Below are positions 1,564 to 27,491 of a stretch of 64,000 nucleotides of DNA, piece by piece. Made by a program: the position numbers and the translations under genes. A model generated the notes under the pieces. It saw only the letters and a program-made list of their open reading frames with translations. It was not told the DNA's origin and ran no database searches. The DNA is from Escherichia phage LinBro. Each line of letters opens with the position of its first letter. Position 1 is the first letter of the stretch. Location: the sequence record OR896830.1; one strand, given 5' to 3'.

Positions 1564-2463
1564 TTACTTACCTACTGACAGAGGTGCTTCAATCTTTCCT
1601 GCATGTTGGTAGTTGCTAATACCACCAATAAAATCACTTGCGGTAAGGTGTTTTAGGTCACTTAGCGTGTTAAGCTGCACACCAATCTCAAAAGTAGGCG
1701 CATGGAACTCTTTATTGTTCATCAGTTCATAAACCTGCTTCATATGGTTCTGATAAATCTGAGTATCCCCAAAGACACCTATCAAGTACCGTGGAGTATA
1801 TCCAGTCATCTTGCAAAGTACTTCCAGAATAAAACCATAAGATGCAATGTTAAATGGAAGACCTAAAAAGGTGTCTACAGAACGTTGATACCATTGTAAG
1901 TCAACCTCACCTTCGTTAGTGATATAAATCTGAAACAGAACATGACAAGGTGCTAAAGCCATTGAGTTAGCTGCAATATCTGCTGCATTCCAAGCATTAA
2001 CAAGCATGTAACGGTCTGTGATATCACCTTTCATCTTCGTTACTAAGGTCTCTAACTGGTCTACAACACAACCGTTATGACCTTCAAAGTTTCTCCACTG
2101 AACCCCGTAGATTCTCCCACCTGCATCTTCTAACCAGTCTTGCTCAGAAGAATAGTTAGAGCTTAACCAGCGTTTAAAATCATCTGACCAGATAGTCCAA
2201 CGTTCCCCATCATTTTCACCCCAAGTACGGTAACGGAGTTCACCAAGTTTATTCTCACCATTCAGGAACCATAAAGCTTCCCCAATAACTTGCCGTGTAA
2301 ACACCTGTTTAGATGTTAAGAGTGGGAAACCAGTACGCATATCAAAACGAAATTTTGGTGGAGCAAATGCAGAGATAACATCTCCAGTTCGTGTAGTACG
2401 CAGTTCACCAACGGATAAAACATGGTTCAGGATATTTTTGTAACTCAAATCAGCTTGTGACAT
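1564..2463 (-). CDS. thyA: thymidylate synthase
   Basis: 299 aa; active-site region MALAPCHVLFQ and conserved GVQWRNF, DQL..L motifs. Confidence 0.9.
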   Translation of the reverse strand: MSQADLSYKNILNHVLSVGELRTTRTGDVISAFAPPKFRFDMRTGFPLLTSKQVFTRQVIGEALWFLNGENKLGELRYRTWGENDGERWTIWSDDFKRWLSSNYSSEQDWLEDAGGRIYGVQWRNFEGHNGCVVDQLETLVTKMKGDITDRYMLVNAWNAADIAANSMALAPCHVLFQIYITNEGEVDLQWYQRSVDTFLGLPFNIASYGFILEVLCKMTGYTPRYLIGVFGDTQIYQNHMKQVYELMNNKEFHAPTFEIGVQLNTLSDLKHLTASDFIGGISNYQHAGKIEAPLSVGK

Positions 2464-2464
2464 A

Positions 2465-3010
2465 TCAAAAGTGTCCTTTTACTTGTGGAACATAGATTTC
2501 AAAGGTTGCTTTACCATCATCTGAAGGTCTCGACTGCACCTTTGCAAATACACGGTTATCATACAGCTTATCAAAGAAGTTTTCAAAAGGTAAATACACA
2601 GTGGCCTCTTCAGTAACTTTATGGAAAACTGTATGGAAAACTACACCAGCATATGGTAAAGCATCGACAAGAACACCTGCACCACCAATTACAAAGACAT
2701 CTTCATCAATAGAGCTATCAAGATACTTCAAAAATGCTCCAAAGGACTCTTTGCTGGCCTTAGCATACATTACATCTTCTTTACCAAAGTCTATACCATA
2801 ATAAGGTACAGAGTTTGTTAAGATAAGGTTTTCACGTTCTGGTAAAGGCTTACTACCCAGAGTCTTGAAAGTCTCGTTACCCATAACTACTAAGTTATCT
2901 TTAGTAAGTCTCTTAAACTCTTGCATATCCTGTTTATGTCGAGGCCACGGCATACCAGTTGGAGTGCCAAATTCACCGTTTTCACCACTTGCAAATATTA
3001 GTTTAATCAT
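2465..3010 (-). CDS. frd: dihydrofolate reductase
   Basis: 181 aa; N-terminal MIKLIFA..GENG..PW and central VMG..TF motifs of DHFR; adjacent to thyA. Confidence 0.85.
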   Translation of the reverse strand: MIKLIFASGENGEFGTPTGMPWPRHKQDMQEFKRLTKDNLVVMGNETFKTLGSKPLPERENLILTNSVPYYGIDFGKEDVMYAKASKESFGAFLKYLDSSIDEDVFVIGGAGVLVDALPYAGVVFHTVFHKVTEEATVYLPFENFFDKLYDNRVFAKVQSRPSDDGKATFEIYVPQVKGHF

Positions 3011-3267
3011 TTTGTAAACCCTTTCTTAATGAACCAGTTGATGACACTCTTCACAACTTTACTACGATGGTAGATAAAATGTGGAGAGGGTTGGTATGAA
3101 CCATAAGCCCAGAAAGCGATAATTTCATTACACCCTGTACATCGGGTACTTTCTTCAGCAATATGACCGTTGACTATTTCACTTACCTCACCTTGTAAGT
3201 CTGTACACCCACAATGTGGACATCGGATAGGTGTTCCATCAGACTCATAGCAGTGTTCAATTTTCAT
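3007..3267 (-). CDS. zinc-ribbon protein, function unknown
   Basis: CPHCGC...CTGC cysteine pairs. Confidence 0.45.
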   Translation of the reverse strand: MKIEHCYESDGTPIRCPHCGCTDLQGEVSEIVNGHIAEESTRCTGCNEIIAFWAYGSYQPSPHFIYHRSKVVKSVINWFIKKGFTK

Positions 3268-4457: not shown

Positions 4458-4662
4458 CTTTCTTCTTCCGTTTGCGTGAAGTGTCAATCAATGAATCTAT
4501 GTTTGTAGCCCTAACCTTTTCACGTTCATCGTTAAGATAATCATCAAGAGCCTTTTCAATCTGTGAATCATCTTGACAGATAACTGTAAAGACTGTAAAG
4601 CCGTCTGTATCGTCAATTATCTTACCATAACCGCTTCTGGGATGTAACTTTTTAAGAGCCAT
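4450..4662 (-). CDS. hypothetical protein
   Basis: 70-aa ORF, short overlap with downstream gene. Confidence 0.35.
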   Translation of the reverse strand: MALKKLHPRSGYGKIIDDTDGFTVFTVICQDDSQIEKALDDYLNDEREKVRATNIDSLIDTSRKRKKKDE

Positions 4663-4663
4663 A

Positions 4664-5047
4664 TCAAATACCTGTGCAGCTTCTGTTTTCTAAGAAATAC
4701 TCAACACCGTACATAGCTTTTTGCATCAAATCTTCTTTAAACTGGATACGGTGGTTGAGCATAGACTGTACATCAATATCATCACGGTGTTTCTCTTTAA
4801 TGTTTGCAGATTGCAGGAAATACTCTGCAAGAACACGATACTGGTAGTCAGTCACCTTATCAGTCATCTCTGTTAAAGACTCTTCAGAGATTGGTTTAAG
4901 TAGCTCACCATTCGCTAGAGCAACACCCTTTACAATCTGACAAGTATCCTCTTGGACGCCTGATAAGTTCACATTTGGTAGTTCTGTTGAATGAACTGGT
5001 AAACTCATTGTCATAACCATTGCAGCAGCTAATAAAATCTTTTTCAT
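4664..5047 (-). CDS. secreted or periplasmic protein
   Basis: Signal-peptide-like N-terminus MKKILLAAAMVMTMSLPVHS. Confidence 0.5.
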   Translation of the reverse strand: MKKILLAAAMVMTMSLPVHSTELPNVNLSGVQEDTCQIVKGVALANGELLKPISEESLTEMTDKVTDYQYRVLAEYFLQSANIKEKHRDDIDVQSMLNHRIQFKEDLMQKAMYGVEYFLENRSCTGI

Positions 5048-5319
5048 AATGACCTCAAAGTTATATTAAATTTTGTATTACGTTGAGTATAAAAATAAGC
5101 TATAACACCTGACTTGTCAACAGATTTTATAGCTTATTTGGCAGATTTTTTATAAGGCTACTGCCATCCTTCCATGCTAGACTACGCCATGCCAAACCAG
5201 ACTTCACATCACCTTACCGTGCAATACATCACTTAAAAACCCTCTTAGAAGACTCTTAAGTGATACTGGTGAGTACCCGTTGGTTTATGCTGCTCAGTAT
5301 ACTCACCAAATTTTCTATG

Positions 5320-7669: not shown

Positions 7670-7860
7670 TACTCAATGTCAATAAGTTCTTGTGCAATGC
7701 TTTTCAGATTACCTTTCAAGAAAACCTTCTCAGAACCTGAAAGAGATGAATTGTCAATTAACCTGTTCATTCTCTCAAACAACTTCTGCTTACGGTTCTT
7801 GATAGTTTCCTTTGAAGCGCCTTTCATCATCGCTGCATGGGTTCTTCCACGATGGCTCAT
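7651..7860 (-). CDS. hypothetical protein
   Basis: 69-aa ORF. Confidence 0.3.
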   Translation of the reverse strand: MSHRGRTHAAMMKGASKETIKNRKQKLFERMNRLIDNSSLSGSEKVFLKGNLKSIAQELIDIEYWRHQK

Positions 7861-7921
7861 AAGTCCTCCTATACAAGATATTGTATAAGGTACTCTTCCC
7901 TGAGCACCTTGTCAATACTAA

Positions 7922-8485
7922 TTAGTGTACTTCAAGCCAATTCTTACCAACTTTACCAGTACCAGTTACAAGCGTTTCCTCCTTAAGTCCTAAGTTTCTT
8001 GATGCCTGACCATACATCCAGTCAATCACTGCTTTAACATCTTGTGTCATCTCTTCTGGGCACTCCCAACTGTTCTCATCGTGGTATGCTAGAAGCAATC
8101 TAGCACCAATAGCTGGTTTTCGACCATTCAGCTTTGTAAGACCCTCTTCACAAGTTCTTCTACAAGCGAGGTTGATGGCTTCATTCTGAACCTGACTTTC
8201 CGAACCCATGAGCAGATAATTCAATAGTTTGTGTGGAGATTTACACCACAACCATGCACCAGCAACCTTTACAAAACCACCTTTAGAGATTGCAGCAGTC
8301 TTACCAAATACCTCTTCAAGAGCCTTCTTAGTGGCTTTGAAGTCAGCTTCCAAATTATCTATCAACTTTTTAATCTTAGGGAGGCGTACAAAGTAAGTTT
8401 GCTTAGTTAAAGCACCTTCTTCGGTTGTTGATGCTTTAATCGTCTTGGCAAACTTCTCATCACCTGCCCCAAACAATACATCTGG
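7922..8485 (-). CDS. DNA polymerase (family A), C-terminal segment
   Basis: Begins FGAGDEKFAKT (second half of motif B, cf. T7 YGAGDEK) and contains motif C LLAYHDE; frame opens just after a stop at 8486-8488. Confidence 0.8.
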   Translation of the reverse strand, partial: PDVLFGAGDEKFAKTIKASTTEEGALTKQTYFVRLPKIKKLIDNLEADFKATKKALEEVFGKTAAISKGGFVKVAGAWLWCKSPHKLLNYLLMGSESQVQNEAINLACRRTCEEGLTKLNGRKPAIGARLLLAYHDENSWECPEEMTQDVKAVIDWMYGQASRNLGLKEETLVTGTGKVGKNWLEVH

Positions 8486-9270
8486 TCAATACACTCGCAA
8501 GGTGTACCAGTTCTCTTATGAACTTCTCCGCATTTCTACGGAGTGTCGGACTATATCACGTAGTAGTAATACTACCGTTGCACTTGGGAATGGTCATTAG
8601 CTTACCACCCTACTCTACTCAGTTCATACATTAAGTATGCTTTTCGATAGTCTCTGAACGTTTCTCTGTTAGGAACTCTAAAATACTATTGTTTACTAAG
8701 GTATGCAATTGCTCTCTGCATATTATCAACGCTATCTGCAAGCAACCCCAAAGCCCTATTGCAATTGTGGCACAACATACCTCTTACTTTTCCGGTTTTG
8801 TGGTCATGGTCAACGACAAGTTTAGCCTTATGCCGTGAACTATTCATGATAAAACCTTCACCGCCACAAATTTGACATTTGTAATCACAGTTACGAAGTA
8901 GGGTTTCAACCTCTTCTCTTTCTAAACCATATGTTCTCAGGTAGTAATTCTTAACTCTACCTTTCTCTCCGCAATGCGAAGAACAATAAACTTGCCTTGC
9001 TGTTCTAGGCATGAACACCTTCTCACAGCTAGGACATTTCTTAGTAAGAACCCTATGTTCTGCTCTTCTGTCAAATTTTAATACGCAACTTCTGCACCGT
9101 TTTTGATTGTATTGGTATGGTTTAAACTCTGCACCACACTCAGTACACAATCTCTCTTTGTAACCTGCCATTGTCTCTCTCCTTTGCTTTAGGAGTCCTA
9201 ACAGAGACTTCGCTGCTGATTACCATATCTTTACAGACTTAGGCTTCCAGCAATTCACAACGTTTTACAT
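8477..9270 (-). mobile_element. intervening sequence in DNA polymerase gene (group I intron-like) carrying HNH endonuclease
   Basis: Polymerase motif B is split: upstream ORF ends RKKAKNGIYA...stop, downstream ORF resumes FGAGDEK; HNH ORF lies between; boundaries approximate. Confidence 0.55.
8686..9171 (-). CDS. HNH homing endonuclease
   Basis: CxxC pairs plus VVDHDHKTGKVRGMLCHNCNRALG HNH motif. Confidence 0.8.
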   Translation of the reverse strand: MAGYKERLCTECGAEFKPYQYNQKRCRSCVLKFDRRAEHRVLTKKCPSCEKVFMPRTARQVYCSSHCGEKGRVKNYYLRTYGLEREEVETLLRNCDYKCQICGGEGFIMNSSRHKAKLVVDHDHKTGKVRGMLCHNCNRALGLLADSVDNMQRAIAYLSKQ

Positions 9271-11452
9271 GCGCCACTGACGCATAAATGCCATTCTTGG
9301 CTTTCTTACGACCCTTACTAATTTCTTGAAGAAGGTTTGTATCCTGAGTAGCTCGACAAGTCAAGATATCTTCCTCTTTATTAAGGCTGAAGTAGATGCT
9401 ATTTAAAGTATGCGCATCAGTTCCTGAGTACACCACGTACAAGTCATTTTCAGAATCATAATGCAAATACTTGTCAATCTCTGGGTTTAGATACTGGTCA
9501 AAATGTTTGCAATAGTATCTGCCATCCTCTTGTTTGACAAACTCAACTTCTTCTTTACCCTCTGTCACTGCTTTGGTGAACTCTTTATCACCCATAAAGT
9601 TACACAGCAGTACAAGTTGCGCGCTATTCATATCTGCTGAAACAATATTAGTTCCTTCTTCACAAGTCCACACCTCCCTCATAGGTGCTCCATAGACAGC
9701 AGCACCAGACGGTACGTTTACAATACCATATTGTGTCATACGTCCAGTTGAAGTACCAAACACCATTGCACCAGCACTAAGGCGACCATCAGGACGAATC
9801 TGGTTCAACCAACCTTTTTCATCATCTTTTGAGTTCTCAATAGTTCTGCGTCGGTGCATTAAAGTATAGTACTTAGCAATCTTCTGTCCAAGCTCACCTT
9901 CAATCGTATCATAAGATGATTCAGTAAGTTTTGGTGAAGTACGGATTAAGCAAGGCTCAAGCAAATCTGTGTACTTCTTCACAGACCAGTTATGCTCAAT
10001 GTACTGTACACCTTCATGTTCAACATAACTCAAACCACACCGCTCAACCATTTCCTGCCACTTAGGATGCTTTGTAATCATCTTTTTATTGTCTTTGAAA
10101 CGACAAACTTTAACAGGGCGACCATCTGAGTCTTTCTTGTAGTTCCAGTCATCTGGAATCCAACCAACTGATTTCAAGTAGTCTTTAACAACTGCTACCT
10201 GAGTCATACGAGAAACTTCGAACTCAATTGGTGTATATGGTGCATCAATCAAACCTGTGTAGCGACTTGACTCAAGTTCAAAGTGATTGACAACGTGACT
10301 GTTATAGTACTTCACAGTCTTGACTGTTTTTACTGGTTTCCAGTCTTTGCATTTTTTGCCAATCTTTGCATTCAACTCGTTGCAGATTGCACGAGCATCC
10401 TTCATCGCTACAAAACCCTCTTTGTACTCTTCACCAGTTACAGAGTTGGTTGGTGTATAGCAATTTCTCTTTTCAATGTTAAAAATCTTTGTAGTTGGCT
10501 TACCAAATGGTTTGATTTCATAAGTCTGCATCTCACCATTACGTACCTGCTGACGGTACTTTGTCTTAGGGTACTTGGTAATTCTCTTCAGTCCATCTGC
10601 ATGACCAAATGTTTCAACATACTCATTCCAAGCTTTTGCAAACTCTTCTCCAGTCACTTTACCTTTGGTCTTAATAGTTGGAGGTAGATGTGGTTCAACC
10701 TCTGAAGCAAGCTCATTAGTCAACTTGTCAAGTTCCTTTACATGGAACTCCATAAGCTCCTTATCAGCTTTCCAACCATTGATAGCTTGTTGACTCATCC
10801 AGAAAGATGTTTCTTTAGCTCGCATATAGGTTTCATAAGTATCTATGCCACACTTCTTAAGCTTGAGATACTCATTATCAAGTGCCCGTTTAGTTTTGGC
10901 GTTAATACGGATATCTTCTACAACACGAGTGAAGATTTCTGCATTCCACACACCCCAATGTTCAATCTCTGGTTTACGGACACCAACACGAGCACCCCAT
11001 GCAGCCAAACCATGAGCACCTTTATAACCCTTTGGGGTTGGCCTATCCATCCACTGAACACGAGACTGGATAAGAGAATCCTGAAAGAAATTACTCCACG
11101 GCTTACATTTTGGATTATCAAAGTTCCATAAATCAGGCGCAATGTGATTGAAAACCCACCAGTCATAGCCGAGACCATTATGGATGCAAAGACGTTTTGC
11201 CTTTAACGCAAATTCAACACCTTCACGTAAGCCGCCCTTGATGTACTTAGTGTACTTGTGACCGAGGATAGGTTCATCTGTAAAGACCCATACAGGTGGC
11301 TCTTCATCATCAGATTTATAGTCTGCGAAAGCCATTACGTGCACTTTAGTGAACTCAAGGAGTAAACCATCAGTTTCTGTATCACCAACCAAATGTAAGT
11401 TTTTAAAATCTACGTTTTCCATTTTTACTCCCTCTAAAATCATTAACCTCAT
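9239..11452 (-). CDS. DNA polymerase (family A), N-terminal segment with 3'-5' exonuclease domain
   Basis: Exo I motif DTETDG near N-terminus, motif A-like ADMNSAQL, motif B start RKKAKNGIYA; last ~10 codons probably intron-encoded. Confidence 0.9.
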   Translation of the reverse strand: MRLMILEGVKMENVDFKNLHLVGDTETDGLLLEFTKVHVMAFADYKSDDEEPPVWVFTDEPILGHKYTKYIKGGLREGVEFALKAKRLCIHNGLGYDWWVFNHIAPDLWNFDNPKCKPWSNFFQDSLIQSRVQWMDRPTPKGYKGAHGLAAWGARVGVRKPEIEHWGVWNAEIFTRVVEDIRINAKTKRALDNEYLKLKKCGIDTYETYMRAKETSFWMSQQAINGWKADKELMEFHVKELDKLTNELASEVEPHLPPTIKTKGKVTGEEFAKAWNEYVETFGHADGLKRITKYPKTKYRQQVRNGEMQTYEIKPFGKPTTKIFNIEKRNCYTPTNSVTGEEYKEGFVAMKDARAICNELNAKIGKKCKDWKPVKTVKTVKYYNSHVVNHFELESSRYTGLIDAPYTPIEFEVSRMTQVAVVKDYLKSVGWIPDDWNYKKDSDGRPVKVCRFKDNKKMITKHPKWQEMVERCGLSYVEHEGVQYIEHNWSVKKYTDLLEPCLIRTSPKLTESSYDTIEGELGQKIAKYYTLMHRRRTIENSKDDEKGWLNQIRPDGRLSAGAMVFGTSTGRMTQYGIVNVPSGAAVYGAPMREVWTCEEGTNIVSADMNSAQLVLLCNFMGDKEFTKAVTEGKEEVEFVKQEDGRYYCKHFDQYLNPEIDKYLHYDSENDLYVVYSGTDAHTLNSIYFSLNKEEDILTCRATQDTNLLQEISKGRKKAKNGIYASVAHVKRCELLEA

Positions 11453-11679
11453 ACATTACTGCAAAAAATTATAAAAAGCAAGTTGACAATGCACTTGACA
11501 AGGTGTTAATCTTTGCGAAGTGGGTTTTTACTTAAAAGGTTACTTAACAGTTTAACTATACAGATACTTTAAAACTCTTAAAAGATTATTTAATAGCTTT
11601 TAAAAAGCTTTAAAGTATAACGTATAGAATACGTTAAGATAAAAGATTAAAACTTAATAGCTACTTAAAAGAGGCTTAC

Positions 11680-24604: not shown

Positions 24605-25804
24605 ATGAACAAAGTACAGATTATTAAAAAGAATGGCTCACTTGAAGAACCCGATATCAAAAAAGTTTTAGCAGCAGTAACTAAGTCAGCTAACAGGGTT
24701 GGATATAAAGAACTTCCACCAGATGTTACCCAAGCTCTTGAGTCAGCATTTATGAGGATTCTGGTAAAGTCCACTAAGCAGAATAATTTGCTCATCTCGG
24801 TAAATGATATTCACAGTATTGTTGAGGGTGCTTTGGCAGAAGTCAATCACGAGATTTATGAGTCTTACTCAACATATAGAAATTACCGTAAAGAGGTTGC
24901 TCAAAATTGGGACGAGCTTTACCAAAAGACTAGGGATACACTCTTCTTAGGTGACCGTGAAAATGCTAACTTTGACAGTAGTTTAATTTCTACAAAAGGC
25001 TCAATTATTCGTGGTTACTTGACTAAAGAAATCTTTAAACAGTACCATTTAACACCAGAGGAACTTGAAGCCATTGAAAAAGGGTTTATCTACATCCATG
25101 ACTTAAGAGACCTAATTTTTGGTGGTATCAACTGTTGCCTGTTTGACATCGGCAAAGTACTGAAAGGTGGCTTTGAAATGTCTGGTATCGAATACTGTGA
25201 ACCAAAGTCTGTGCTGTCAGCCTTACAGGTTATTGGTGATGTAGTTCTTTCAGCAACTGCACAGCAATTTGGTGGCTTTACTTTAGCAGAGATTGATAAG
25301 GTACTTGTGCCGTATGCTAAAAAATCTTTAGTGTACCACTCAGAGAAAGCTGAAGAGTACGGAATCCCTAAAGAGCAACACTATAATTACGTAATGGAGC
25401 AATTACAGAATGAGTTAACACAAGGTTTCCAATCTCTTGAAATGAAACTCAACACTGTTCCTTGCAGTCGCGGTGATTTTGCATTTACTACTCTGACATT
25501 TGGCCTGTTGGAACCAGATATGCACAATGAAGATAACCGTCTTCAGTTTATGATTGCTAATACAATCCTTAATGTAAGGATGAACGGGCAAGGGAAAAGC
25601 AAAAAACCTGTTGTTTTTCCTAAACTTGTGTATATCTATGAAGAGACAAGACATAAACTTGATGTATGCCAAGCAAGGTTGTTTGAAAAAGCTATTGAGT
25701 GTTGCTCTAAAGCGATGTATCCAGATTTCTTAAGTGTATCTGGTCATGGTGCTGTAGCAGATGCTTTTGAGCGTTCTGGTAAGGTGATTTCACCGATGGG
25801 TTAA
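24605..25804 (+). CDS. nrdD: anaerobic ribonucleotide reductase, N-terminal segment
   Basis: ATP-cone-like N-terminus; ORF terminates without the Zn ribbon and glycyl-radical region, which resume downstream. Confidence 0.8.
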   Translation: MNKVQIIKKNGSLEEPDIKKVLAAVTKSANRVGYKELPPDVTQALESAFMRILVKSTKQNNLLISVNDIHSIVEGALAEVNHEIYESYSTYRNYRKEVAQNWDELYQKTRDTLFLGDRENANFDSSLISTKGSIIRGYLTKEIFKQYHLTPEELEAIEKGFIYIHDLRDLIFGGINCCLFDIGKVLKGGFEMSGIEYCEPKSVLSALQVIGDVVLSATAQQFGGFTLAEIDKVLVPYAKKSLVYHSEKAEEYGIPKEQHYNYVMEQLQNELTQGFQSLEMKLNTVPCSRGDFAFTTLTFGLLEPDMHNEDNRLQFMIANTILNVRMNGQGKSKKPVVFPKLVYIYEETRHKLDVCQARLFEKAIECCSKAMYPDFLSVSGHGAVADAFERSGKVISPMG

Positions 25805-26522
25805 CAAGCTCTATAGCTCATCTAAAACGTGCCTAAACAGGGAAACTCTACAGATGTAGACAATCCTGTGCTAAATGATGTACGATGTAAGAAACTATAC
25901 AACATAGGAGTCTTACATGCCAAACTATCACGTCACTGAAGATGGAAAAGTCTTTAGGGAAAATGGTGTAGAGCTTACGCAGTGGAAATCCAACACTGGG
26001 TATATGAAAGTGAGGTTTTACGGTAAGAAGAATCGTGACATGTATGTCCACAGGTTAGTTGCTGAGAAATATGTACCTAACCCGAACAATCTTCCAATTG
26101 TAAAACATAAGGACGATAACAAACTAAATAACCACGTATCTAACTTAGAATGGGGTACTCATTCTGATAATGCTAAAGAAGGTTATGAGAATGGATGTTA
26201 CAAGTTCCACAAGCGTTCATATGCCGTGAAAGCCACACACAAAGTGACAAAGGAAGTTATTGTTACTAAGTCAATACGAGAGTTATCCAATATACTTGGA
26301 TACAATCGCAAGACCATCTCTTCAATATTGAAGGGTGTAAAAGAGCATAATAACTTCGAATATGAGTTTGAATACATCTAAATGCCGAACGACTAACCGT
26401 GATGAATGTAGCGGTGTAGGGTCAAGCGACTCGAAATGGTACGCTACTTAGAAATAAGTAGAAGATATAGTCTGGACTTACTGGCGACAGTAAGCAGCTT
26501 GAATAAAGCGGGGTAAGCTTAG
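25790..26522 (+). mobile_element. intervening sequence in nrdD (group I intron-like) carrying HNH endonuclease
   Basis: Splits nrdD between two ORFs; downstream frame open from 26523; HNH ORF inside; boundaries approximate. Confidence 0.55.
25917..26381 (+). CDS. HNH homing endonuclease
   Basis: VHRLVAE...VKHKDDNKLNNHVSNLEWGTHSDN HNH_3-type motif. Confidence 0.75.
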   Translation: MPNYHVTEDGKVFRENGVELTQWKSNTGYMKVRFYGKKNRDMYVHRLVAEKYVPNPNNLPIVKHKDDNKLNNHVSNLEWGTHSDNAKEGYENGCYKFHKRSYAVKATHKVTKEVIVTKSIRELSNILGYNRKTISSILKGVKEHNNFEYEFEYI

Positions 26523-27491
26523 CGAACTTACCTGAACAATAAGTGTAGAGCATTTTTATCACCATACCATAACGAATATGGTGAAGAGTTTTATGTAGGT
26601 CGTGCTAACATTGGTGCTGTATCTTTGAACTTACCAATGATTTACCAGTATTCTAAAGAGAATGGTTTAGATTTCTGGAAAGAGCTTGATAAGTACCTAG
26701 AGATGATTCGCAGCTTCCACAAGAAACGCTACGAAATGATTGCTAATATGCCAGCAAGCTCTAACCCTCTTGCATTCACACAAGGTGGCCTGTACAAAGG
26801 GACTAAGAAATCTACCGACAAGGTTGGCTGGGATATCGTGAAGTCCTTCACAGCTTCTTTTGGAGTTACTGCGCTTGATGAGCTATCTGTTCTTGCTGAA
26901 GGTAAACGACTTCATGAAGTTGGGAGCTATAGTTTTGCATACGATGTTCTGGCATACATCAACATGAAAACTGAAGAGTTTAAAAATGAAGATGGCTTCT
27001 TATATGCTGTCTATGGTACTCCAGCAGAATCACTTTGTGGAACTCAACTAAAACAGTTCAGAGAAATGTTTGGTGTTATCAAAGGTGTTTCTGACAAGGA
27101 ATACTTTACAAACAGTTTCCATATGAATGTTGCAGCAGACATCTCACCATTTGAGAAGCAGGACTTAGAAGAGCCATTCTTCCATATCTGTAGAGGTGGC
27201 AGAATCCAGTATGTCAGGGTAGCTAACCCAGAAAACTTAACAGCACTTAAGAGTTGTATTACAAGAGGGATGTTGAAAGGTTTTTATCAGGGACTTAACT
27301 TTGACCTAGCAATTTGTGAGCATTGTGGTAGCAGACCAAAGGCTGATGTTGAAGAATGTGAGGTTTGCCATTCACATGACATCTCTGTGATTAACAGGGT
27401 GTGCGGATATCTGGGATGGACTAAGATTAAAGGTGAATCCCGAATGAATGATGCAAAAATCGCTGAGATTCGTGACAGGATTTCTATGTAA
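26523..27491 (+). CDS. nrdD: anaerobic ribonucleotide reductase, C-terminal segment
   Basis: Zn ribbon CEHCGS...CEVCHS and glycyl-radical-like RVCGYLG near C-terminus; no canonical start, frame open from 26523. Confidence 0.8.
   Translation, partial: RTYLNNKCRAFLSPYHNEYGEEFYVGRANIGAVSLNLPMIYQYSKENGLDFWKELDKYLEMIRSFHKKRYEMIANMPASSNPLAFTQGGLYKGTKKSTDKVGWDIVKSFTASFGVTALDELSVLAEGKRLHEVGSYSFAYDVLAYINMKTEEFKNEDGFLYAVYGTPAESLCGTQLKQFREMFGVIKGVSDKEYFTNSFHMNVAADISPFEKQDLEEPFFHICRGGRIQYVRVANPENLTALKSCITRGMLKGFYQGLNFDLAICEHCGSRPKADVEECEVCHSHDISVINRVCGYLGWTKIKGESRMNDAKIAEIRDRISM

Follow-up and report, generated by a model that had tools for sequence, protein, structure and literature searches.

The question raised by this locus is why the family A DNA polymerase gene of Escherichia phage LinBro is found in two pieces that flank a gene for an HNH endonuclease. 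The window analyzed here is a 64,000-nucleotide stretch of DNA from this phage (sequence record OR896830.1), which belongs to Felixounavirus. Over 7800..11600, it shares 97.9% identity with Escherichia phage vB_EcoM_LNA6, and this region matches 261 phage records, nearly all of them Felix O1-like myophages of the same genus, in which the usual annotation is a pair of ‘DNA polymerase’ coding sequences (CDSs) with an ‘endonuclease VII’ or ‘HNH’ gene in between. An earlier sequence-only reading, made from the letters and a list of open reading frames (ORFs), had favored a group I intron capable of self-splicing over two separately translated halves, a preference now supported by the P1 helix, Rfam matches, covariation, and the junction peptide. 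On these comparative data, we consider it very probable that motif B (the O-helix) of the polymerase is interrupted by a mobile group I intron carrying a homing-endonuclease gene.

The interrupted polymerase gene and its boundaries

The polymerase and intron features are all encoded on the minus strand, according to the ORF list, and comprise the following:

9280..11452, minus strand: family A DNA polymerase gene, exon 1, with Exo I and motif A plus the opening half of motif B
8479..9279, minus strand: predicted group I intron, 801 nt, with first base C 9279 and terminal G 8479, as aligned to intron-less alleles
7922..8478, minus strand: exon 2 of the polymerase gene, with the rest of motif B and motif C (HDE)
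11452..9239, minus strand: upstream polymerase ORF, 737 aa in the ORF list
9239..9241, minus strand: in-frame TAA ending the read-through from exon 1, within P5 and 13 codons past the splice site
8476..7922, minus strand: downstream polymerase ORF, 184 aa, listed from TTG

The upstream ORF bears the family A signatures that the sequence-only reading had recognized, namely VGDTETDG (Exo I), the motif A-like ADMNSAQLVLL, and the start of motif B in ...GRKKAKNGIYA. Its stop does follow soon after motif B, at a distance of 13 codons (SVAHVKRCELLEA) before the TAA rather than the roughly 10 that had been estimated. The downstream ORF begins with (M/L)FGAGDEKFAKT and holds AYHDE (motif C), just as had been described, and an HNH ORF lies in the gap, whose length had been put at ~790 bp but is 762 nt from ORF to ORF, the intron proper being 801 nt. 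This arrangement is far beyond chance and recurs in about 97 GenBank phage records. The counterpart of exon 1 is annotated as ‘DNA polymerase’ in GenBank relatives, and its candidate starts are the ATG at 11452 or that at 11422.

The boundaries follow from comparison with intron-less homologs, which the earlier reading had suggested as a check. Exon 1 ends with ...AAT GGC ATT TAT GCG T (the last T being 9280) and exon 2 starts with TA TTG TTT GGG GCA GGT..., while the interruption sits exactly where intron-less relatives read straight through: wV8, for instance, reads TAT GCA CTG CTG TTC GGT (Y A L L F G) unbroken at this point. A single cut, with T9280 as the last base before the intron and 8478 as the first after it, restores the wV8-type peptide; it places the intron after a U and ends it in G. 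The same junctions, GCGT followed by CAGTGG at the 5' end and CCAGATG followed by TATTG at the 3' end, are common to all 12 intron-bearing alleles examined. Conversely, all 23 intron-less alleles are contiguous at the site, with 21 encoding KNGIYALLFGAGDEK, the same junction peptide that the in silico spliced product carries, and the other two KNGIYCLLFGGGDEK. Site variants among these intron-less alleles include GCACTGCTGTTC (the wV8 type), GCCCTGTTATTT, and, rarely, GCGTTACTG; the base before the site is mostly C, not U (GCA CTG or GCC CTG), with GCG TTA/G CTG found in two.

The predicted ligated junction is TATGCGT joined to TATTGTTT, which restores the host reading frame in a joined ORF of 909 aa (~103 kDa) with NGIYALLFGAGDEK as the predicted junction-spanning peptide. 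This spliced protein matches Pfam DNA_pol_A (PF00476) at 59.1 bits (cut-off 34.3) in one stretch crossing the junction, whereas the separate halves score under the cut-off (18.7 and 27.3 bits). Likewise, T7 gp5 (RDNAKTFIYGFLYGAGDEKIG...) aligns unbroken across the junction to the C-terminus (T7 gp5 residues 511-695).

These boundaries bear on the view that the polymerase is truly split, with no RNA splicing and with 737-aa and 184-aa products (~84-kDa N-terminal and ~20-kDa C-terminal polypeptides) that are translated separately and then assemble. Split versions of gp43 are known in some T4-related phages, and a study of ‘fractured genes’ is reportedly a further precedent. The GenBank records do annotate two ‘DNA polymerase’ CDSs, with the Mushroom record placing a ribosome-binding site at the second, and the C-terminal ORF can formally begin at TTG. 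Yet inspection of the sequence on the 5' side of exon 2 reveals neither an in-frame ATG nor a Shine-Dalgarno (SD) sequence, which bears out what the sequence-only reading had said of the downstream segment. Further, the break falls in the middle of the O-helix and would leave the N-terminal product with 13 additional intron-encoded residues, and the exact U...G boundaries have no explanation under such a split. Taken with the RNA evidence below, we regard a split polymerase as highly improbable. No promoter-like or terminator-like site was found on the minus strand within the intron.

A second set of alternatives holds that the insert is an element of another kind, namely an intein, a group II intron, or a free-standing HNH gene lodged between two genes, and an HNH gene between two polymerase ORFs does resemble many free-standing endonuclease insertions. 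The insert is out of frame and contains stops and is therefore not an intein; the Felix O1 genome paper argues likewise against an intein in that genome (PMC3185647). Moreover, RF00028 is the sole Rfam family that matches the insert, and ORF-less versions retain a structured RNA of 267-311 nt at the very same site. We accordingly give these alternatives a practically negligible chance.

Structure and conservation of the predicted ribozyme

The search for group I structure with Rfam models, another check raised by the earlier reading, yielded partial RF00028 matches in the window at a permissive threshold. The first, at 9256..9120 (28.1 bits, E = 6.7e-5), spans P3 to P6, and the second, at 8855..8526 (15.4 bits), includes the hallmark core strings GUUCAGAGACUA and GAUAUAGUCC and a GAAA-capped P9. 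The ORF-less alleles of BPS17L1 and GEC_vB_BS match the full model (1-253) at 63.8 and 62.9 bits, respectively, both above the gathering score of 50. As the ORF-less cores are 95-100% identical to that of the window (the two core halves of GEC_vB_BS being 100% and 99.5% identical), the membership of the window core in the group I family follows from these near-identical alleles. Such Rfam-positive ORF-less alleles would be left unexplained by a truly split polymerase.

The secondary structure was drawn as follows:

9268..9286, minus strand: P1 helix, 8 bp, in which exon UAUGCGU plus intron C (9286..9279) pair with the guide GGCGCAUG (9275..9268)
9196..9262, minus strand: 5' half of the ribozyme core (5' strand of P3, P4, P5/P5a, P6, and 5' strand of P6a)
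9262..9256 with 8582..8576, minus strand: P3
9252..9247 with 9219..9214, minus strand: P4
9243..9223, minus strand: P5/P5a, with a GUAA loop
9212..9211, minus strand: 5' strand of P6
9207..9196 with 8674..8663, minus strand: P6a, a 12-bp stem whose loop contains the whole ORF
8479..8674, minus strand: 3' half of the ribozyme, from the 3' strands of P6a/P6 to the terminal G
8674..8659, minus strand: 3' strands of P6a/P6
8652..8648 with 8553..8549, minus strand: P7 (GACUA/UAGUC)
8647..8619, minus strand: P7.1
8610..8586, minus strand: P7.2
8575..8560, minus strand: P8
8543..8526, minus strand: P9, with a GAAA loop
8523..8510, minus strand: P9.1
8509..8483, minus strand: P9.2, with the terminal G at 8479

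In P1, the splice-site U9280 forms a U.G wobble; the hairpin alone has a folding energy of -8.7 kcal/mol (z = -2.7) and is unchanged in 12 of 12 intron-bearing alleles. At the other end, the intron closes with ...CCAGAUG before exonic UAUUG, and the terminal G (omega-G) is present. The overall architecture is IA2-like, with P1, P3 to P9.2, and both P7.1 and P7.2 but without P2, which is a usual feature of IA2 introns.

To this fold, comparative evidence adds compensatory change. Relatives were gathered from IMG/VR via P7 strings and ranked by nhmmer, and 26 cores were aligned (the window with its ORF removed in silico, 5 alleles of the genus, Erwinia phage MIF8, and 19 metagenomic introns), the structure being tested by MAFFT, RNAalifold, and explicit pair counting. 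Unaided, RNAalifold recovers P3, P4, P5, P6, and P8, with compensatory changes in 18 of 26 pairs. In the manual full model, including the P3/P7 pseudoknot, 82% of the cells are paired, as against 35-41% when the partners are slid by 1-3 columns, and its covariation score is 0.415 versus about 0.10 for the slid controls. P3, P5, P6, and P8 are overall 92-100% paired with many compensatory changes: P3 is 95.6% paired (6 of 7 pairs compensatory), P8 91.6% (6 of 6), and P6 100%. P4 and P7 are invariant and thus uninformative on covariation either way.

Selection on the RNA can be seen in comparison with the divergent allele of JLBYU32. Over the first 598 codons, the polymerases of the window and JLBYU32 share 99.5% protein identity, whereas protein identity is 81-85% over exon 2, the intron ORF, and the final 123 codons of exon 1, with four-fold degenerate sites in these divergent flanks about 52% identical. 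Amid this divergence (mismatches at 47/171 nt of exon 1, 120/507 of the loop plus ORF, and about 40/179 of exon 2), the ribozyme differs at 2/294 nt, both in the P5a loop. The conserved block begins with the P1 strand that belongs to the exon, the last exon mismatch being at 9287, and ends after the P6a stem (first mismatch at 9189); conservation then returns near the end of the ORF and stops 7 nt into exon 2. Its limits match P1, the P6a stem, and the 3' splice site. More generally, the 3' half of the ribozyme shows 0-1 substitutions relative to alleles with 21-27% of sites differing in the flanking exons and in the intron ORF. In the ribozyme of the EC6-like allele there are 0 and 1 substitutions, and that of FSL SP-107 has 2 and 1 along with one 6-nt duplication in P8. 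The few core changes across the 12 alleles fall in loops or bulges or are compensatory (e.g., U-A > U.G > C-G in P8). Hence, the ribozyme appears to be under very strong purifying selection, which matches the prediction for a working ribozyme and is hard to reconcile with a mere spacer; a 294-nt non-coding block that is ~99% identical amid coding DNA diverged by 21-27% is also left unexplained by separately translated halves.

The same data speak to the idea that the locus is a decayed, non-functional intron remnant or a pseudogenized polymerase, with another polymerase replicating the phage. Decay of a kind is visible: the endonuclease ORF is broken into two fragments in VpaE1 and is lost altogether from other alleles. 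But it is this ORF that is decaying while the ribozyme stays extremely conserved, and the 81-85% amino acid identity of the exons with saturated synonymous sites points to purifying selection on both halves of the polymerase. Further, these phages are viable isolates, the examined region showed no sign of a second polymerase, and a single DNA polymerase is listed for Felix O1 (PMC3185647). The chance of such decay is, in our view, very slight.

Several observations weigh against a group I intron capable of self-splicing. At the gathering threshold, Rfam returned only tRNAs over the whole window and no intron match, its own best RF00028 match (28.1 bits) being under the gathering score of 50; this low score arises because the ~500-nt ORF in P6a splits the core. 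P2 is absent, with UAAAA alone separating P1 from P3, and a search by eye found no convincing P10 (at least 3 bp). P7.1 and P7.2 can both be drawn, with GUAGAGUAGG in between, and the within-genus changes in them fall in loops and bulges, but their comparative support is weaker (52-85% paired in the wide alignment). P1 and P9 are likewise less well supported in the wide 26-core set, and for all four helices this is partly because of poor alignment there. The near-perfect identity of the ribozyme could, in part, reflect recent spread or gene conversion. Finally, our literature search found no experimental evidence of splicing or homing in any Felixounavirus.

On balance, the intron is predicted to catalyze its own splicing, and the following course of events would account for the anatomy. 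The polymerase gene would be transcribed as a single pre-mRNA, in which the ribozyme would fold and exogenous guanosine would attack after U9280, held in P1 by the guide; the freed exon 1 would then attack after the terminal G8479. The ligated mRNA would direct synthesis of one 909-aa polymerase with an intact RKKAKNGIYALLFGAGDEK helix, while ribosomes entering unspliced RNA would halt 13 codons past the splice site, at the TAA.

The endonuclease gene and the proposed spread of the intron

The intron bears a gene of its own:

8686..9171, minus strand: putative homing-endonuclease gene, 161 aa, of the Endonuclease VII-type HNH class, wholly in the terminal loop of P6a

This gene is preceded by an SD (AAGGAG) at 9184..9179, and its product matches Pfam Endonuclease_7 (PF02945) over residues 79-159 at 69.3 bits (cut-off 23.6). 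It has two N-terminal CxxC...CxxxC modules and an intact DHDH...N...HNCN motif; its matches in PDB are weak (Hpy99I, 2.5e-5; T4 endonuclease VII, 6e-3). The protein is 96% identical to the JH2 protein that was called intron-encoded in PMC6083498 and shares 50% amino acid identity with the intron ORF of Yersinia phage Berlin and 51% with that of a LUZ24-like Pseudomonas phage. A hairpin (CUCCU/AGGAG) that would sequester the SD, and that is kept in a divergent allele, proved no better than shuffled sequence (z = -0.5 and -1.2) and was rejected.

The HNH protein is presumably a homing endonuclease, with indirect support from the occurrence of both intron-present and intron-absent alleles within a single genus and from the divergent exon patch around the site. 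Encoded by a free-standing gene with its own SD, it would cut or nick intron-less polymerase alleles near the site in mixed infections, and repair would copy the intron, with some flanking exon sequence, into the cut alleles.

Three allele states are found in the genus: no intron, an ORF-less intron of 267-311 nt, and an intron with the ORF of 780-811 nt. About 97 of the 261 polymerase-region records carry the intron (135 intron-matching records minus 38 from Yersinia, Pectobacterium, and Erwinia phages that match part of the ORF or core), about 40 with and about 57 without the ORF; in a sample from IMG/VR, the intron is present in 5 of 25 loci. The polymerase of Felix O1 itself is uninterrupted (906 aa), and no introns were reported for that genome (PMC3185647).

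Some individual records merit comment. GEC_vB_BS (MW006475.1, L004 from ~1540), with its ORF-less intron, diverges ~30 nt into exon 2, most of which is seemingly absent, while GE_vB_BS (MG969407.1), a phage of nearly the same name, has an intron of the 801-nt type; this discrepancy points to a deletion, to a mixed population, or to misassembly. The Felixounavirus intron also occurs, at 99% identity, in MG065668.1 (‘Campylobacter phage A126’) and in a ‘Staphylococcus’ record, which bear the names of unrelated hosts and are probably mislabeled or contaminated.

The site lies within a sharply bounded region of variation:

7922..9650, minus strand: hypervariable mosaic patch, comprising exon 2, the intron ORF, and the final ~123 codons of exon 1, delineated from sliding identity and codon positions

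While the first ~1,800 nt of the polymerase gene are 93-100% identical in the genus, this patch (~9650..7922, the 3' third of the gene) falls to 66-82% DNA identity. It is hypervariable whether or not the intron is present, and the ribozyme stands as an island of conservation within it. The patch fits repeated endonuclease-driven recombination, a connection that we draw by inference.

In some relatives, though not in the window, a free-standing gene for an endonuclease with HNH_3 and AP2 domains directly follows the polymerase stop:

L003:2025-2537 (BPS17L1): free-standing HNH_3-AP2 gene
L001:5179-5691 (Si3): free-standing HNH_3-AP2 gene
L132:4029-4562 (REP5): free-standing HNH_3-AP2 gene
L257-L260, L263, L268, L269, and L273, at ~4555-5093: free-standing HNH_3-AP2 gene

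It stands beside 4 of 4 good ORF-less alleles; the counts are 8 of 20 for intron-less loci and 1 of 5 for IMG/VR loci whose intron contains the ORF. Collaborative homing, in which this gene would maintain the ORF-less introns, is neither favored nor disfavored by these counts: there is no clean association, and the gene occurs with all three intron states.

Relationships to other phage introns and wider meaning

The element is an already recognized member of a well-known class. HNH-bearing group I introns in phage polymerase genes are classic, as in SPO1, SP82, Bastille, phiI, W31, LUZ24, and Pf-WMP3 (PMC3428280, which credits the phiI and W31 introns to Bonocora & Shub 2004). According to Fang et al. 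2018 (PMC6083498), JH2, EC6, and FSL SP-010 have intron-encoded Endo VII-motif proteins, and the counterparts in Berlin, YpP-G, and LUZ24 (the last after Ceyssens et al. 2008) are embedded in group I introns of polymerase genes. The genome announcement of Meda (PMC6486253) mentions that the polymerase gene has an intron without an ORF and that nrdD is interrupted by an HNH gene. In our literature search, the published mentions of the Felixounavirus intron were one sentence each, and no structure, boundaries, or splicing test was found for it. The introns of JH2, EC6, FSL SP-010/012/107, Si3, VpaE1, and LNA6 lie at the same site as that of the window, with ribozymes 92-100% and endonucleases 80-100% identical. 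Meda, BPS17L1, and the REP phages have its ORF-less form, which, apart from the ORF that the window carries, shows no essential difference.

Beyond the genus, introns in motif B were located in two other phages:

Berlin, L006 ~2088..2726: motif B intron
vB_Pae_WS1160, L252 ~2319..3140: motif B intron

The intron of the T7-like Berlin similarly interrupts motif B of a family A polymerase, carries an Endonuclease VII-type ORF (77% DNA identity over 95 nt), has the U.G pair in P1, and shares the P9.1 hairpin GUUCAUAAGAGAAC. It differs in being hosted by a podovirus and in its ribozyme core, which is marginally similar (nhmmer 12 bits). The possibility that the two introns occupy the same site was ruled out by the Berlin sequence, which puts its site 11 nt upstream, between KTF and IYGF: counted from the motif B arginine, this lies after nt 2 of codon 7, whereas the Felixounavirus site lies after nt 1 of codon 11. 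The LUZ24-type intron of the Pseudomonas Bruynoghevirus vB_Pae_WS1160 (RF00028 45.7 bits) is again a motif B insertion, in a related polymerase, with an Endonuclease VII-type ORF; its inferred junction is TFI-Y-AFIYGAG and its P1 UCAUCU/GGAUGA. In contrast to the Felixounavirus intron, it is inserted 6 nt upstream of the Felixounavirus site (within the Y codon, codon 9, after nt 1), has one hairpin only between P7 and the 3' strand of P3, and shows no core similarity detectable by nhmmer.

The intron of the cyanophage Pf-WMP3 (with I-PfoP3I), for which splicing and nicking were demonstrated, is comparable in architecture, being a group IA2 intron in a phage polymerase gene without P2 and with both P7.1 and P7.2, and having an SD-led 161-aa HNH ORF that starts in P6a (PMC3428280). 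It differs in its site (E. coli position 674, where SPO1, SP82, and Bastille also have theirs), in the HNH subfamily, and in that the ORF reaches into P7 (PMC3428280).

The closest ribozyme cores found by nhmmer were those of Erwinia phage MIF8 (69 bits) and the IMG/VR contig L046 (74 bits), which share with the window the J6/7-P7-P7.1-P7.2 signature UCAGAGACUAUCGAAA...GAGUAGAGUAGG but have no ORF and a different host gene; unlike the window, MIF8 also has P2. The MIF8 intron (Schitoviridae, N4-like; PP700702.1, L007 ~2465..2710) is itself an unannotated ORF-less group I intron (RF00028 94.4 bits) that begins at the annotated stop of an ‘RNAP2-like protein’ CDS. This RNAP2-like gene is probably split, its second exon being the ‘hypothetical protein’ that comes next.

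The ribozyme and the endonuclease thus have different nearest relatives and, seemingly, separate histories. Endonucleases ~50% identical occur in group I cores of three different kinds, whose insertion sites all fall within 11 nt of motif B (nt 20 for the Berlin type, nt 25 for the LUZ24 type, and nt 31 for Felixounavirus), in three phage groups, while the Felixounavirus ribozyme is closest to ORF-less introns that other phages have in RNA-polymerase genes. Together with the ~1.7-kb hypervariable recombination patch within otherwise ~97% identical polymerase genes, this leads us to a broader hypothesis, offered only tentatively: one lineage of Endonuclease VII-type homing-endonuclease genes may repeatedly have been paired with unrelated ribozymes at motif B of family A polymerases in phages, making this motif a hot-spot, and the endonuclease, not the intron, may pick the site and drive allele turnover of the catalytic domain.

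Other features of the window include an interruption of the anaerobic ribonucleotide reductase gene nrdD and a tRNA cluster:

25802..26543, plus strand: candidate second group I intron, in nrdD
24605..25804 and 26625..27491, plus strand: ORFs flanking the nrdD interruption
25917..26381, plus strand: inner ORF of the nrdD interruption, 154 aa
58665..63568, plus strand: cluster of 24 tRNA genes (Rfam)

In nrdD, exon 1 ends in ...ISPMG (GGT, followed by TAA...), and exon 2 resumes with CRAFLSPYH after ...AAUAAG; GAUAUAGUCU lies at about 26466, and RF00028 matches 26314..26494 at 33.1 bits (E = 1.2e-4). The interruption is a probable second group I intron. The tRNA complement is as expected for Felix O1-like phages, 22 tRNAs being reported for Felix O1 (PMC3185647).

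For the annotation of the family, our findings mean that, in ~100 deposited Felix O1-like genomes, the pair of ‘DNA polymerase’ CDSs and the gene labeled ‘endonuclease VII’ should become one joined CDS, an intron, and a homing-endonuclease gene. The locus would be another clean case in which an essential phage gene has a mobile group I intron within its most conserved part. As such, it leaves current understanding unchanged, the modular history of endonuclease and ribozyme and the hypervariable patch being the only parts possibly worth further work. The coexistence in a single genus of the empty site, the intron with its endonuclease, and the intron minus the endonuclease makes these phages a convenient natural system for the homing cycle.

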